From contig CARNVA010000008.1 in the NCBI GenBank assembly GCA_949031345.1, positions 7,661-71,660 on the forward strand: 64,000 nucleotides of DNA. Reading direction: 5' to 3'. The position numbers were made by a program, and so were the translations under genes. Source of the DNA: an uncultured Eubacteriales bacterium. GTDB taxonomy: Bacteria > Bacillota > Clostridia > Christensenellales > UBA1242. Below, one piece after another: positions 13,399 through 46,489 of this stretch. The stretch's first letter is position 1; each line of letters opens with the position of its first letter. The notes below the pieces were generated by a model. That model was given only the letters and a program-made list of their open reading frames with translations. It was not told the DNA's origin and ran no database searches.

Positions 13399-13429
13399 AA
13401 AAAAAGTATAACAGCAAATGCTGTTATAC
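13399..13429 (-). terminator. rho-independent terminator of the large ncRNA
   Basis: A 10-bp stem (GTATAACAGC / GCTGTTATAC) with a 4-nt loop, followed by U7 on the minus strand. Confidence 0.85.
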
Positions 13430-13991
13430 TTAGAAGGCAGCTGGTTAAGTAAACCTTGCGCCATAGGTTCGGTCGGATTTCCCATTCTCGCACTCAAGCG
13501 TCACCGCTTCGAGCAGTTTCCTATTAAGCAAGACATTACACCGAATCGCCACTTAGGTCGCACTATAATCCCTATCCAGCCAGCACTTAGCAACAGTCTA
13601 GAAGTTTTCCTTGACAGAAAACAATTTTATTAGCCTATTTTGCAAATGCCATTTCATAAGCAGCAGTTTTCAAATTATTGGCCGATAATATGAAAACGCT
13701 TTTGCTTAATCCCAAGCCATTCACTCAAGGCAGGCTACGCTGCACACAACTTTTATCGCAATGCAGGTTCTTCCTCAATAGTAGAAGAGTTGACTTCCAC
13801 CCATTAAGGTCTCCACGAAAATTGGGTCGTGGACTGTATGCCATTACAATTCGCCCAAAATTCTTAACTCCCAGCACCAGCCCCAGTTTGGGCAACCAAA
13901 GCCAGCACCAGAAACTTCACAGATATGCCCGTCGACGCTATTACTTCGCCTTCCTAAAAAAGCCTTCTGACTAGAATACTGCACCTTCTAT
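13399..13991 (-). ncRNA. large (about 590 nt) structured non-coding RNA, class unresolved (OLE-like candidate)
   Basis: G+C-enriched block with no credible ORF. It has a consensus sigma-70 promoter upstream and a perfect terminator downstream on the minus strand. 5' AGAAGGC (13962-13968) can pair with 3' GCCTTCT (13432-13438). Several local hairpins are visible, such as CCACGA/TCGTGG and GTTTTC/GAAAAC. Confidence 0.65.
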
Positions 13992-13997
13992 TATTAG

Positions 13998-14026
13998 ATT
14001 ATATCATAAATGCAATAAAAATGCAA
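13998..14026 (-). promoter_or_regulatory. sigma-70-type promoter of the large ncRNA
   Basis: Minus strand reads TTGCAT (14026-14021), a 17-nt spacer, then TATAAT (14003-13998). Confidence 0.7.
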
Positions 14027-39759: not shown

Positions 39760-39960
39760 AAAAAATCGCCCCAATGTAAAATTTCTACATTAGGACGAAA
39801 TAATTTCCGCGGTGCCACCTAACTTGCTCCAAAAAAGAGCCTCTTTTCTTAAATTGTCAAACTCCAAAGTGTCCTTCATAATATCACAGTTTGGCAATTT
39901 TCACCCTCATGCCTCTCTGAAAAACTGTCGATAAAACTACTCTCTTTTTCATAGTTTTCA
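39760..39960 (-). promoter_or_regulatory. T-box riboswitch leader of aspS
   Basis: The minus strand has AGAGAG and AGTAG in Stem I and a distal GGTGAAA. The T-box sequence is AGTTAGGTGGCACCGCGG (39807-39824). The terminator TCGTCCTAATGTA / TACATTGGGGCGA plus U6 lies at 39798-39760. The candidate specifier GAC is at 39873-39871. Confidence 0.85.
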
Positions 39961-39965
39961 TCAAA

Positions 39966-39994
39966 AGTTTACTCTAGTTTAATCAGTTTGTCAA
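39966..39994 (-). promoter_or_regulatory. promoter of the aspS T-box leader
   Basis: Minus strand reads TTGACA (39994-39989), a 17-nt spacer, then TAAACT (39971-39966). Confidence 0.6.
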
Positions 39995-40016: not shown

Positions 40017-42995
40017 TTATTTGCTAAAGCCAAGCTCCTGAAGCTTTTCTTCTGTCAAAGTTTCTCCACCTTCTGCAAGCCAGGTCAAACCTTTGGGCAA
40101 TGGACATCCATCAGCCATAACAATCCAATTTGAAAAATCTTCACCTACATATTTCTTTGTGCCATTGTCATAAATGCAGTTTTCAACTGTGCAAGATACT
40201 GGGCAAAAAACCTCAATTAAAGAGGAAACAATTGCCATACAATCGGTGATTTTTCCTCCCAGCATATAGCCTGAAATTAAGCCCTGATTTGATGATACAA
40301 CAAAGCCTCCTTTAAATACGCACGCTTTTATCTCAGTTTCGCGCACACCAGTCTGTCCAATAATCCCACCACTGCCAGAGCCTTTTATATTGCACCTTGT
40401 CACACAGTTTGATATGGTGATTTTGTTGTAATGATTGCTACCCAAAATGCCGCCCGCGCATGAAGTGGCAATAATATCTCCATAGTTGAAACAATAAGAT
40501 ATATCACACCCATTACTTGTTCCCACCATGCCGCAATTATCCGTGGCCCTAACAACCACGCCGCTTCGACAACCTTCAATGCTGCCCGTTTTGTCCTCGC
40601 CCGCATAAATTGCCTCAACGCGACCTGCAATTGAGCCAACATACGATTTCCCATAAACATTTCCAGATATAATATTGATATTTTTTAAAGTCGCCCCAAT
40701 GCAACAGCCAAACAAGCCAACATTTGAATAAATGTATCCCCCTGCCTCGCTTCCCTCTTTTGCACTCGAGGTGGAAAGATTTTTGATTAAATAACCGTTT
40801 CCGTCATAATGCCCTTTAAACCCATTATCACTGTCACTTCCTATCGGCAACCATAACCTGCTAACCTCAGCACCTTCTTTATCTGTTGCCAAATCTATCG
40901 TCCTTGTCTGTTTGAAATAAACGGCAGAAAAACTCGTCGAATTTTCAACCGATTTTGAAATAAACGCCAAATCTTCAGCACTTGAAACAAGATATGGGTC
41001 ATCTTTAACACCGCCACCAGCTAAACTGCTTGAAGCATATAGATTCCAAGTCTCTTCCCACTGGGCATATAATGTAAAATCACTTGTTATGTTTGAGACA
41101 AATTGATTTTCATAATAAATGGTGCCACTTCCGTCACGCTGCGTGTTCCAACTTTTGAAAATATAACCTGCCTTAACAAAGTCATTGCTTGGAAGTTTCA
41201 CGCTGCCCGCAGCATATTTGACACCTGCAGCAGACATATTTCCACTTCCACCATTTGCATTGAAAGAAATATAGAAAGTCTTGGCTTCCCACCGGGCAAA
41301 TATAGTAAAGGCTGTTTCCACATTCATTATACTTTCACTTTCAAACTTGTTTCCACCACTATCAAACCAGCCTCTAAAATCATAGCCCGTTCTCTCATTC
41401 AGCGATGGTAGCGTCCCAAAGGACGAATCGAAATCGATGTCTTTCACCGCATTGTCGCCACTCTTTGTCCATCCATTAAGAGCATTGAAATTCAAACTTC
41501 CACCATTCGGATTTGCCGTGACTTTAATTTTTTTTACTGTCCACTGCGCTTCAAAAGTGGCTTCTGGCCTAGTCAACATTGGAAATCTATCTACATATAG
41601 ATAACCATTTGAATCAAGTCTGTAAGTATATCTATTCTCAAGACATTTCCATCCAGTCAAAGTATAACCTGTTTTTACAGGCTTTAAATGTGGTCTGAAT
41701 ACCGAATTGGCAGCTACATCTTGAAAACTATGACTGCCTGTATTGCCATTTATATTTCCACCATTAAGCAACAACTTAACAGTATACTTCTGTAAAGAAG
41801 CAGCTGCCGCTGTCAAATTCAAATGAAAAGCAGGTCTTACACCTCTGCGGTGCCAAACGTCAATTGTACTTATTTGATTGCCTGTTGCACTAATAGAATA
41901 TGCTTTATTGGCATACCAAGGGTCTGCCGTTCTCAGCCATGTATCGCTGTATAAATATTCTCTATATGGCGTTTGGACTGAGCCAACGAAGCCTGACTCA
42001 TACTCATTTTTTCCTGTATAAGATTTGTTCTGCTCAACTGATGTTTGCCACATACCTTTAATTTCTGTATAACTTGGAAGCCAAATATAATCTTCTGACC
42101 AATCATTCGAAGCCTTGGTAGCATAGTTGAATGAGCCGCCAGGATAACTGTTAAAATTATAATCTTGACCATAATAATTACCATAATCTGGAATACGATT
42201 TGACCAATTCTCGTTTGATAAAGAATAATCACCCAGCCCAAAGAATGGTGCGCTCTGCCCATGTTCTTGCCATATTACATTAAACGGCTTTACAATATAA
42301 TTGGTAATACTTCCCTCGATACCAGGCATTGTGAATTTTGCAAAGGCACTATTTGTACTAGGTTGAATTGGCCCAACCATTTGACTTCCACTGCTAGCAA
42401 AATCATAACCATTATTTAAAACGACAGCACGAATGTAGTTTGCACCATACATATTTGATGGCAAATTGACTGAAGGGTCACTATTACTAAATGCCGCCCA
42501 AGAAGAATATAAGATTCCCCCTGCCGTCCCACTGAGATAACCATGCAACTGCCCTTCAGTCTGACTTCTATTTGCAAAAGCTTCTTGAAGATTGTTTGAA
42601 AGCCATAAAGTCAAAATCCAGTTTTGATTTTTGTCTGGTGTCAAACACACAGCTTGCCAGTCAAGCCCAGCAACTCTCACCATCACATCATGATTGGGTG
42701 ATTTATTATAATTTTTCGCTTTTATTGCAGATGCATCGGCAAAAGCAAGCTTATTCATATTGTACACATTGGTCTCACCACTGCCTGAAATAAGTTGCAT
42801 CAGATTGTTCAAATTGCCTTCATTAAAAGCATTTCCATTCCAAATTTCATTTACTTTTACATAACTTGAAGTGTCAGTGACTGCCACTGCATCCGCTTTT
42901 TTGATTATGCCTTCAAAACTAAGCCCCATAAGAAGAGAACAAACAGCAAAAAGAAAGCAACATATCATCACTGAAATTTCGCCAAGCTTTTTCAT
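40017..42995 (-). CDS. large secreted surface protein (992 aa) with a DUF6273-like module, Listeria-Bacteroides repeats and a GLUG-type C-terminal region
   Basis: The signal anchor is MKKLGEISVMICCFLFAVCSLLMG. Motifs include WLRTADPW...RGVRPAFHLNL, and the repeats GYTLTGWKC, GYDFRGWFD and GYIFKSWNT. GGILGSN and GGIIGQT motifs are also present. Confidence 0.85.
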   Translation of the reverse strand: MKKLGEISVMICCFLFAVCSLLMGLSFEGIIKKADAVAVTDTSSYVKVNEIWNGNAFNEGNLNNLMQLISGSGETNVYNMNKLAFADASAIKAKNYNKSPNHDVMVRVAGLDWQAVCLTPDKNQNWILTLWLSNNLQEAFANRSQTEGQLHGYLSGTAGGILYSSWAAFSNSDPSVNLPSNMYGANYIRAVVLNNGYDFASSGSQMVGPIQPSTNSAFAKFTMPGIEGSITNYIVKPFNVIWQEHGQSAPFFGLGDYSLSNENWSNRIPDYGNYYGQDYNFNSYPGGSFNYATKASNDWSEDYIWLPSYTEIKGMWQTSVEQNKSYTGKNEYESGFVGSVQTPYREYLYSDTWLRTADPWYANKAYSISATGNQISTIDVWHRRGVRPAFHLNLTAAAASLQKYTVKLLLNGGNINGNTGSHSFQDVAANSVFRPHLKPVKTGYTLTGWKCLENRYTYRLDSNGYLYVDRFPMLTRPEATFEAQWTVKKIKVTANPNGGSLNFNALNGWTKSGDNAVKDIDFDSSFGTLPSLNERTGYDFRGWFDSGGNKFESESIMNVETAFTIFARWEAKTFYISFNANGGSGNMSAAGVKYAAGSVKLPSNDFVKAGYIFKSWNTQRDGSGTIYYENQFVSNITSDFTLYAQWEETWNLYASSSLAGGGVKDDPYLVSSAEDLAFISKSVENSTSFSAVYFKQTRTIDLATDKEGAEVSRLWLPIGSDSDNGFKGHYDGNGYLIKNLSTSSAKEGSEAGGYIYSNVGLFGCCIGATLKNINIISGNVYGKSYVGSIAGRVEAIYAGEDKTGSIEGCRSGVVVRATDNCGMVGTSNGCDISYCFNYGDIIATSCAGGILGSNHYNKITISNCVTRCNIKGSGSGGIIGQTGVRETEIKACVFKGGFVVSSNQGLISGYMLGGKITDCMAIVSSLIEVFCPVSCTVENCIYDNGTKKYVGEDFSNWIVMADGCPLPKGLTWLAEGGETLTEEKLQELGFSK

Positions 42996-43159
42996 TTATC
43001 CCTCCTTTTAATGCTTAATCGTTTTTTATTATTCATATTTTTCTCTTGTAACTTAAAAAAACTTTTTATTGCGCTTTTATTTCAATCGTTTTTGAAACCA
43101 CAAATTTTTCTTAAATCACATCAAAAGAAATTATATTCCTGCAAATTAACTTCGCTTTT

Positions 43160-43187
43160 ATTTTACCCCCCCCCGATTAAATGTCAA
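43160..43187 (-). promoter_or_regulatory. promoter of the 992-aa surface-protein gene with a G9 tract in the spacer
   Basis: Minus strand reads TTGACA (43187-43182), then the 16-nt spacer TTTAATCGGGGGGGGG, then TAAAAT (43165-43160). Confidence 0.7.
43166..43174. repeat. C9/G9 homopolymer
   Basis: Nine consecutive C on the plus strand. It is the only long G/C homopolymer noticed in this AT-rich window. Confidence 0.95.
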
Positions 43188-43447
43188 GTGATTAAATATT
43201 TATTATGTGGTTTTATTATATCCATTTTTTAATAATTTTGTCTGTTTATTCAATAATAATAAACAACGAAAATAGGTTTTTTGTCTTACGGCATCGGCTA
43301 TGACAAGGCTGAAAATAAACCTGTTTAAACTTAAACTAAAGATGCACAACAAAAATTTAACAACTTTCTTTTGCAATCAAAACAAATCATTTTCATACGC
43401 TTTACGAGAAAGGAGATTTGTGCTAATATATTTGAAGGAGGTTTGCT

Positions 43448-43786
43448 TTGCTTAAGACTGTCAATTTAAAGGAAGATAATTTTAATGTTGAGCTGGCGCT
43501 TGCAGTGGTTGAGATTGAAATCGAATGTGCAAAGCGTGAAGGCAGAGCTGCACTTAAGCTATTGCATGGCTATGGCTCACACGGAAGAGGGGGCGTGATT
43601 GCCATTGAAGTAAGAAAAGCTTTATTCCACTGGAAAAAGAGCGGTTTTATTACTGATTATTTTGGCGGCGATAGATGGAATATGTTTGAAAAATGCAGTC
43701 AGCGGATATTATTAAAAGATAAAGATATCTATGCTGACGAAGACATGGGCAAAGCAAATCCAGGAATTACAATTGTCGAAATATAA
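43448..43786 (+). CDS. Smr-domain protein (112 aa)
   Basis: TTG start behind GAAGGAGG. The Smr signature is LKLLHGYGSHGRGGV. Confidence 0.7.
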   Translation: MLKTVNLKEDNFNVELALAVVEIEIECAKREGRAALKLLHGYGSHGRGGVIAIEVRKALFHWKKSGFITDYFGGDRWNMFEKCSQRILLKDKDIYADEDMGKANPGITIVEI

Positions 43787-45631: not shown

Positions 45632-45663
45632 AAAAAAAGCATGAAATCAATCATGCTTTTTTT
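45632..45663. terminator. bidirectional terminator
   Basis: A 7-bp stem (AGCATGA / TCATGCT) flanked by A7 and T6. Confidence 0.7.
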
Positions 45664-46489
45664 AGTCCATGTATAAATCATCCAAATTGATGTAGTCATC
45701 ACCGTCTATTGACTGGTCGTTTTTAAGCTTTTGCTCATCGTCAACACTTGTTTGTTTGTCATCAATGCTTGAAAGCTCTTCTTCGTCATCGTCATCGTCA
45801 AAGACTTTAATTCCGCCCTCAGCACAAAGGCCTGCCCTATGTTTTGCAAGCATATTTAATGTCCTTGCTGCCATTTCATAATTATTTTTTTCTATTTCTA
45901 TCTGTCTATCAATGTTTGCAATGGCATTTTTTATATAATAATCTCGAATTTCATTTGCATATCCAGCGCCAAAAATGCATTTAAATATCTTTCTCATGCC
46001 ACCAACAAGCCCTTTATCCTGATAACAACACTGTAAAACTTCATCCGCTGTTGGAATTTCATCCGCTTCATAATAGTCATTTTGATAATAAATATTAAAG
46101 CTGTCATTATCACTTCTTACATACCAGTCAAAATCTGCTCCTTTCTCATCTGCCTTTCTATAACTCTTACTATTTTCCGAAGATCTCAGCAATGGATTAT
46201 AGATATACATATTGGCAAATCTCACACGCCAAATATTGTTATCGTCCTCATTGAAATTGGTGTTACCTTTTTCCAGCTGCAGCTTAAGATTTGAAAGACC
46301 AAGCTCATGCAGCTCATCTTTTTTAGCATCTTTTTCATTAGCGAAAAAGATTTCAAGCCCAGCTTCCTTATGCTTATAGCCCTTATTGTGAAATTTGGCA
46401 TAAATTATGACATATTCTTCGCCTATATCAGAATAAATCTTTCTGCCAAGCAATTCATCTGGATTTAATTTGCTAAAATATTTATTCAT
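45662..46489 (-). CDS. hypothetical protein (275 aa) with an acidic C-terminal tail
   Basis: Long ORF ending in a D/E-rich stretch (FDDDDDEEELSSIDD...). No motif recognised. Confidence 0.6.
   Translation of the reverse strand: MNKYFSKLNPDELLGRKIYSDIGEEYVIIYAKFHNKGYKHKEAGLEIFFANEKDAKKDELHELGLSNLKLQLEKGNTNFNEDDNNIWRVRFANMYIYNPLLRSSENSKSYRKADEKGADFDWYVRSDNDSFNIYYQNDYYEADEIPTADEVLQCCYQDKGLVGGMRKIFKCIFGAGYANEIRDYYIKNAIANIDRQIEIEKNNYEMAARTLNMLAKHRAGLCAEGGIKVFDDDDDEEELSSIDDKQTSVDDEQKLKNDQSIDGDDYINLDDLYMD

Follow-up and report, generated by a model that had tools for sequence, protein, structure and literature searches.

A length-variable poly-G tract in the promoter spacer of a surface-protein gene from an uncultured gut Clostridia bacterium: a candidate phase-variation switch

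Introduction

In Mycoplasma hyorhinis, the lipoprotein genes of the vlp system each carry a poly-A tract of about 17-20 nt in the spacer between the -35 and -10 elements, and these genes are turned on and off independently and in combination. To our knowledge, nearly all characterised slippage contingency loci are from pathogens, i.e., from Neisseria, Haemophilus, Campylobacter, Helicobacter, Treponema, and Mycoplasma. Whether only pathogens have genomes rich in phase-variable loci, or whether database bias creates this impression, is listed among the open questions in a 2025 review (PMC11868660).

Poly-G tracts in promoters are the closest described parallels to the locus reported here. A poly-G tract has been described in the spacer of the porA promoter of Neisseria meningitidis, where the gain or loss of one G relative to the 17-nt spacing grades expression into high, medium, and none (PMC7864442). 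In Treponema pallidum, the promoter of tp0126 contains a poly-G tract between the -35 and -10 elements with an optimum of 17 nt, and poly-G tracts of 7-11 nt are present in the promoters of the tpr genes, which encode paralogous outer-surface proteins; the lengths of the poly-G tracts vary both within and between isolates, and G9 is the most common length at tprL (range 7-11) (PMC7864442). At the Spy1336/R28-Spy1337 locus of Streptococcus pyogenes M28, an intergenic homopolymer tunes the surface protein R28 (PMC7098570). In the literature that we searched, phase variation in Clostridia is by DNA inversion, and neither for Clostridia nor for InlB-B-repeat proteins did this literature describe a switch based on a homopolymer spacer.

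We analysed a 64-kb stretch of DNA (hereafter, the window) in which a run of nine G lies upstream of a gene that encodes a 992-aa protein. A first-pass annotation of the window had proposed this run as a candidate phase-variation switch, and the comparative evidence, namely the polymorphism of the tract and the conservation of the module to which it belongs, supports this proposal. On the strength of these sequence comparisons, we consider it likely that the G9 tract is a slippage-variable spacer that tunes a sigma-A/sigma-70 promoter of a surface protein with InlB-B repeats.

The locus shares features with each of the systems above and differs from each of them. As in porA, a G homopolymer lies within the sigma-70-type spacer of a surface-protein gene; however, porA is a single locus of a Gram-negative pathogen, whereas here the module recurs across a paralogous gene family and the host is an uncultured Gram-positive-type gut commensal. 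T. pallidum likewise has several paralogous surface-protein genes with poly-G promoters, and the lengths at tprL are much as those reported here. In contrast to our host, T. pallidum is a spirochaete pathogen that is GC-rich and in which poly-G is common, while the window has a G+C content of 35% and contains one long run in 64 kb; furthermore, the tract lies outside the spacer in tprE, tprG, tprJ, and tprL. The R28 locus resembles ours in that an intergenic homopolymer tunes a surface protein in a Firmicute, but the R28 homopolymer consists of T, lies between divergent genes, acts partly via a regulator gene, and is not described as the spacer of a gene family. The vlp system, too, equips each member of a surface-protein gene family with its own spacer homopolymer; it differs in that the homopolymer is poly-A, the host belongs to the Mollicutes, and the encoded lipoproteins vary in repeat size, whereas here the tracts are poly-G of 8-10 nt and the products are large InlB-B-repeat proteins. 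The cwpV and flagellar switches of Clostridioides difficile are related to our case through phase-variable surface proteins in the class Clostridia, but they operate by recombinase-driven site-specific inversion and not by slippage. The proposed mechanism itself is known (it is of the porA, tp0126, or vlp type) and is not new; what is new here is the commensal gut Clostridia host, the family-wide module, and a motif that appears to single out exported proteins in metagenomes.

Results and Discussion

The 992-aa gene and its host

The open reading frame of the 992-aa protein was confirmed on the minus strand at positions 40017-42995. The N-terminus of the protein is hydrophobic, as in a signal or anchor, and the protein also contains a DUF6273 domain and Listeria-Bacteroides (InlB B) repeats. 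Its C-terminal part of about 550 aa is 38-50% identical to paralogs that have different N-terminal regions; no other paralog was found within the window. The homologs in the databases are either unnamed or annotated as 'InlB B-repeat-containing protein', and many of them have SLH domains. The N-terminus, the domains, and the homologs support the description of the product as a secreted or surface repeat protein, with the surface as its probable location. The first-pass annotation had called it an adhesin-like surface protein; this description stands apart from the term adhesin, which is a guess.

MAGs with the label 'Clostridia bacterium', as well as mouse-gut metagenomes, contain proteins identical to those encoded in the window, and the host was therefore taken to be an uncultured mouse-gut Clostridia bacterium.

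Two repeats inside the coding sequence also differ in length between assemblies. An A8 tract at 41528-41535 (minus strand, codons ~487-490) has an A9 variant that shifts the frame and splits the protein into pieces of 490 and 492 aa; this variant was found on contigs common to at least 10 samples. A (TG)3 repeat at 42646-42651 (minus strand) has a frameshift variant, (TG)2, in one assembly. These two slippage alleles could provide a second, frameshift-type route by which the gene is turned off.

The candidate promoter and its G9 tract

The window provides its own reference promoters. An Rfam scan of the window identified an OLE RNA at 13418-14003 and a T-box leader at 39788-39961. The promoter of the T-box leader (TTGACA-17-TAAACT) ends 5 nt ahead of the Rfam match, and that of a tRNA-Ala gene (TTGACA-17-TAATAT) ends 12 nt ahead of the tRNA. 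Judged by their sequences and by the Shine-Dalgarno element described below, these promoters show that canonical sigma-A promoters with a spacing of 17 nt are in use in this organism.

Upstream of the 992-aa gene, the minus strand reads cacTTGACAtttaatcGGGGGGGGGTAAAATaaaagc at the candidate promoter. A perfect consensus -35 hexamer, TTGACA (43182-43187), is followed by seven non-repetitive nucleotides, tttaatc, the last of which is C (43175-43181), and then by the G9 homopolymer (43166-43174), which forms the length-variable part of the spacer. The tract directly adjoins the -10 hexamer TAAAAT (43160-43165), which matches the consensus at 5/6 positions. The spacer is thus 16 nt long (7 nt plus G9), and the ATG at 42995 lies 165 nt downstream of the end of the -10 element. 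The placement of a G9 tract between the -35 and -10 elements, about 165 nt upstream of 42995, had already been claimed in the first-pass annotation, and its coordinates were confirmed on the minus strand. In a scan for sigma-70-type consensus promoters between 42800 and 43900, which covers the 1.1-kb intergenic region, TTGACA-16-TAAAAT ranked first, with matches at 11 of the 12 hexamer positions. We infer that it is the active promoter of the 992-aa gene.

A scan for runs across the 64 kb agreed with the earlier claim that the tract is the single long G/C homopolymer in an AT-rich window: G9 is the only G/C run of at least 7 nt, followed by two C6 runs. The full pattern of promoter plus tract was recovered in none of 100 dinucleotide-preserving shuffles, while a bare G9 was present in about 6 of 100. 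The G9 run by itself is only mildly unusual; the striking part is its place within a near-consensus promoter.

The position of the -10 element places the predicted transcription start near 43152-43154, and the predicted 5' leader of about 158 nt would extend over 42996-43153 (minus strand). The leader contains a T7 tract (43055-43061, minus strand), which is T6, T7, or T8 depending on the strain lineage, and a strong Shine-Dalgarno element, AGGAGGG, located 4 nt ahead of the ATG (43000-43006, minus strand). By eye, a 14-codon uORF overlaps the start codon of the 992-aa gene; the ATG of this uORF is absent in L017, an ortholog of the gene.

A riboswitch or other leader RNA was considered as well, and was rejected for lack of Rfam support in the leaders of the 992-aa gene and of a paralog. 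The scan of the whole window at gathering scores returned no match in the promoter and leader region, and permissive Rfam scans returned nothing credible in the leader of the 992-aa gene or in the 670-nt leader of the paralog. The sole sub-threshold match, to SAM-II at 43347-43396, is located upstream of the promoter (18.6 bits, compared to a gathering score of 44; E = 0.58).

A weaker promoter-like site, CAGACA-18-TATAAT (43215-43244, minus strand), was found 30-60 nt farther upstream in the consensus scan, with matches at 10 of 12 positions. Activity of this site would place the G tract within the transcript, and the tract could then act as a modulator of expression and not as an on/off gate.

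The module in paralogs and homologs

An ortholog and several paralogs of the 992-aa gene were retrieved from the species-representative MAG CASLXJ01. The ortholog (L017, 90% identity) has the identical module with G9 and a spacer of 16 nt. A paralog of 1320 aa (L019) has TTGACA-tttttc-G9-TAAAAT, and one of 1179 aa (L020) has TTGACA-aaatatc-G8-TAAAAT; both spacers are 15 nt. The contig of a third paralog stops 90 nt before its ATG. Within this one MAG, the spacers of the tract modules thus differ (16, 15, and 15 nt). Two homologs with 37% identity were found in other samples and in unrelated gene neighbourhoods; they carry TTGACT-ttatttc-G9-TAGAAT (L157, 16 nt) and TTGACA-ttcattc-G8-aa-TAGAAT (L158, 17 nt). 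A further homolog, L154, has no G tract.

Across loci and alleles, the family module consists of a -35 element, 6-7 nt, a run of G8-10, and a -10 element, with spacings of 15, 16, and 17 nt. In an alignment of eight of these promoters, invariance is limited to TTGAC, the G run, and the core of the -10 element, whereas the flanks diverge. All G/C runs of at least 7 nt in about 94 kb from the species pair fall within a -35/poly-G/-10 module. The conservation of the module between divergent flanks speaks for a working promoter whose tract has been maintained. A contingency locus under maintenance would be predicted to show this pattern, which is hard to reconcile with chance.

The same conservation could, however, be read in another way. 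The G tract might be a fixed cis-element of the family, either bound by a family-specific regulator or acting as a rigid G:C block beside the -10 element that tunes promoter melting, with indels that are nearly neutral. Both the tract and its preceding C are retained in the paralogs and in the homologs with 37% identity, as a protein-binding site would be, and there is a precedent in T. pallidum, where the poly-G near the -10 element of tprL acts without a change in spacing and a CRP-like regulator co-operates (PMC7864442). The composition of the module speaks against this explanation: the 6-7 nt ahead of the G run and the tract of 8-10 nt add up to exactly 15-17 nt, a range that straddles the presumed functional optimum. 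Moreover, runs of 8-10 G are inherently prone to changes in length, and selection would disfavour them where a fixed spacing is needed. No candidate gene for a regulator adjoins the 992-aa gene, and no family match was obtained for the 112-aa ORF beside it. The strain comparisons described next also bear on this explanation.

Tract length among strains

Contigs that contain the 992-aa locus were gathered through exact-protein look-up of the gene and its neighbours. Every tract length given here is the consensus call of a short-read assembly, as distinct from a per-read count. The tract is G9 in the window and in 13 independent samples, and G8 in three samples (L011/L168, L015, and L016). Both states occur within a single lineage whose members encode an identical 992-aa protein (P0064), with G9 in L167, L169, and L170 and G8 in L168; over about 3.4 kb, the sole further difference among these four independent assemblies is one synonymous SNP. 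At the paralog locus (P0003, 1320 aa), G9 is present in four assemblies and G10 in two, each from a different sample. These six are otherwise identical over 5.3 kb, barring a scaffold N-gap and a compensating end offset in L148. Look-ups with two further proteins, P0001 and P0002, yielded no new tract alleles; one returned a duplicate of L010, and the contig returned by the other breaks off 143 nt ahead of the ATG.

The length of the repeat differs between near-identical strains, while the flanks remain constant. The first-pass annotation had named an invariant tract as the observation that would count against a switch; G8 and G9 alleles were found at the 992-aa locus, and G9 and G10 alleles at the paralog locus. 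In its position, its variability between strains, and its surface-protein product, the tract has the characteristics of the spacer-type SSR promoter class.

These comparisons return us to the fixed element. Stretches of 3-5 kb that are otherwise near-identical differ by indels in the tract (plus the one SNP at the 992-aa locus), which would not be expected of a fixed spacing. The leader T6-8 tract, which is unrelated to the promoter, also differs between lineages, which indicates that homopolymer indels are not peculiar to the G tract and to this extent favours a fixed element with near-neutral indels. Weighing both sides, we consider the fixed element unlikely and prefer the length-variable spacer.

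The G8 allele of the 992-aa locus is confined to the lineage that has an A at alignment column 73 (L011, L015, and L016); this lineage also contains assemblies with G9. A few mutation events are therefore sufficient to account for the distribution of G8, and the rate of switching may be modest.

Another possibility is that the differences in length are artefacts of Illumina sequencing and assembly, and that the true tract is stable and part of a G-rich spacer of 16 nt. All of the evidence comes from short-read assemblies, and an error of this type is plausible for single contigs; poly-G is error-prone, and one of the retrieved contigs, L171, begins with adapter sequence. Yet three independent samples of a single lineage share the G8 allele, and two independent assemblies of the paralog locus share G10, which is not how random miscalls would be distributed; moreover, each consensus call draws on many reads. 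The conservation of the tract across paralogs does not depend on the length calls at all. We regard it as improbable, even more so than a fixed element, that artefacts account for the observed lengths.

Some contigs end at or near the tract. Contig L004 starts with GGTAAAAT and thus ends inside the G tract, as does contig L161 on the opposite side, which starts with CCCCCCCC. Four further contigs stop 44-143 nt upstream of the ATG of the 992-aa gene. Contigs of the paralog, however, also stop beside the ATG, 670 nt away from the tract of that gene, and breaks outside the tract are therefore weak evidence; we rejected contig ends near the gene start as an indication of heterogeneity, save for L004 and L161. 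The two ends inside the tract are suggestive of length heterogeneity, although drops in coverage at poly-G could alone explain contig ends in or near the tract.

A promoter on an invertible segment, whose inversion switches the gene and whose two orientations break the contigs, was rejected as unsupported and is very improbable: although known phase variation in Clostridia uses invertons (C. difficile cwpV and flagella), a 15-nt inverted repeat with one mismatch (43019-43033 and 43255-43269, 221 nt apart) brackets the promoter, such a repeat was found in only 3% of shuffles, and contig L006 begins 6 nt from one of its arms, the flipped orientation is present in none of the more than 20 contigs that span the region, the arm on the ATG side is not conserved in the ortholog with 90% identity, no recombinase gene is located nearby, and the repeats around the paralog promoters are weak and inconsistent.

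The proposed switch

Under the preferred reading, i.e., a slippage-variable spacer, slipped-strand mispairing at replication would add a G to the tract or remove one from it. A change of one G would shift the spacing of the -35 and -10 elements among 15, 16, and 17 nt, and transcription would be highest for G10 (17 nt), intermediate for G9 (16 nt), and low or off for G8 (15 nt). The spacer arithmetic of the first-pass annotation, from G8, G9, and G10 to 15, 16, and 17 nt, is correct, and the two anchored promoters of the window use the 17-nt spacing. The commonest state, G9 with a spacer of 16 nt, is not the optimum. The change in spacing presumably alters the expression of the 992-aa gene, and the resulting state would be heritable, reversible, and stochastic, either as volume control or as an on/off switch. 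Switching probably takes place within populations, and host antibody, phage, or niche would be the selective agent.

Because several of the paralogs are preceded by tracts that differ in state, a combinatorial display of the family could occur: if each tract varies on its own, lineages would display different combinations of surface proteins.

If this reading is true, a commensal gut Clostridia bacterium represented by MAGs only uses a porA-type spacer switch across an entire family of large surface proteins. It would also explain the recurrent assembly breaks and the fragmentation of MAGs at poly-G sites.

The motif across metagenomes

One collection of metagenomes was scanned with the pattern CTTGACA-N6-7-G7-N0-5-TAAAAT. 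The motif CTTGACA-N-polyG-TAAAAT was found on at least 120 metagenome contigs. Among the matches listed, the G+C content of the contigs ranges from 26% to 68%, and the G run is 7-16 nt long and in most cases directly abuts TAAAAT.

An ORF begins within 400 nt downstream in 90 matches. Using a crude hydrophobicity rule to judge the N-termini, a signal-peptide or lipoprotein-like N-terminus is present in 53 of these 90 downstream ORFs (59%) among the matches listed, versus 130 of 801 control ORFs (16%) from the same contigs (Fisher p = 2e-17); the scan covered this one pattern, and the enrichment is therefore indirect. It is consistent with poly-G spacers being, in many bacteria, a mark of exported proteins that vary.

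A broader interpretation can be put forward tentatively: commensal Clostridia may possess a multi-locus phasome, and TTGACA-polyG-TAAAAT may be a signature of phase-variable exported proteins that crosses phyla. In such a phasome, the proteins would combine conserved C-terminal halves with swapped N-terminal domains, each gene would have its own promoter with a poly-G spacer, and intragenic homopolymer frameshift sites would back up some of these promoters. Slippage contingency loci would then extend well beyond the pathogens that defined them. If the slippage reading of the 992-aa locus holds, the motif flags surface proteins under fluctuating selection (by IgA, phage, or niche), and provides a simple pattern for surveys of phase variation in uncultured bacteria.

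A BLASTP search found no homolog of the 992-aa protein among the downstream ORFs of the matches listed. One of these ORFs, downstream of the match on L027, contains a DUF6273 domain (Pfam).

Predicted poly-G promoters and the leaders behind them

The pattern CTTGACA-N-polyG(7-16)-TAAAAT was found in at least 120 metagenome contigs (loci L025-L144), which are very different from one another in G+C content. Among the matches listed, 59% of the ORFs downstream of the motif looked exported, versus 16% of control ORFs. Several related groups of lipoproteins (e.g., MKIRNFIFGIAL...CFTSCSDGSSSSD) recur behind the motif in these listed matches; the recurring groups carry G8 or G9 alleles.

In MAG CASLXJ01, the start codon of the 1320-aa paralog lies about 670 nt downstream of its poly-G promoter. 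The AT-rich leader in between (L019 2316-2982) contains no ORF of at least 100 aa, and a search of these ~670 nt against Rfam returned no match. A similar leader, 527 nt in length, precedes a DUF6273 protein in L027, one of the metagenome contigs that match the promoter pattern.

The 5' leader of the 992-aa gene includes a T7 tract (window 43055-43061, minus strand), whose length is T6, T7, or T8 depending on the strain lineage; these differences show that ordinary A/T homopolymers at this locus also gather indels. The promoter region lies between the two arms of an inverted repeat, 15 nt long with a single mismatch (window 43019-43033 and 43255-43269). Such a repeat was present in 3% of shuffles, and it is not conserved in the ortholog with 90% identity (L017). 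No contigs in the inverted orientation at the promoter region were found among those retrieved. In Logan contig L171, positions 1-22 are Illumina adapter sequence (CAGACGTGTGCTCTTCCGATCT) joined to the leader; this fusion is an assembly artefact.

Intragenic repeat alleles, and a reverse transcriptase gene beside a homolog

Comparison of the contigs revealed two repeat alleles that disrupt the 992-aa gene. In L012, the contig of one strain, reported as common to 10 samples, the A8 tract at codons ~487-490 (window 41528-41535, minus strand) is replaced by A9; the resulting frameshift splits the gene into ORFs of 490 aa and 492 aa. Apart from A9, this contig is the same as L009 and L014, two others carrying the locus, across 1.5 kb. 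A9 may either reflect pseudogenisation or act as a second off-switch, one that works at the level of translation. In one ENA assembly (L163), (TG)2 takes the place of (TG)3 (window 42646-42651, minus strand), which leaves two ORFs, of 141 aa and 865 aa, in place of the intact gene.

The 37%-identical homolog in L157 (985 aa) is immediately followed by a reverse transcriptase gene (Pfam RVT_1; L157 4493-5358), which could belong to a group II intron or to a diversity-generating retroelement that targets this surface protein.

Other features of the window

At window 13418-14003 (minus strand), this mouse-gut Clostridia MAG carries an OLE (ornate large extremophilic) RNA that is full-length and scores 407.9 bits. 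Upstream of a class II aminoacyl-tRNA synthetase gene of the Asp/Lys/Asn type is a T-box leader (window 39788-39961, minus strand) with its own promoter, TTGACA-17-TAAACT (window 39966-39994); no terminator-like site was found between the stop codon of the 992-aa gene and this promoter. Neither the 275-aa ORF (window 45662-46489, minus strand) nor the 112-aa ORF ahead of the sufC/sufD-like genes (window 43448-43786, plus strand) had a match in Pfam or NCBIfam. The product of the 112-aa ORF shows wide conservation, with listings in 80 index blocks.
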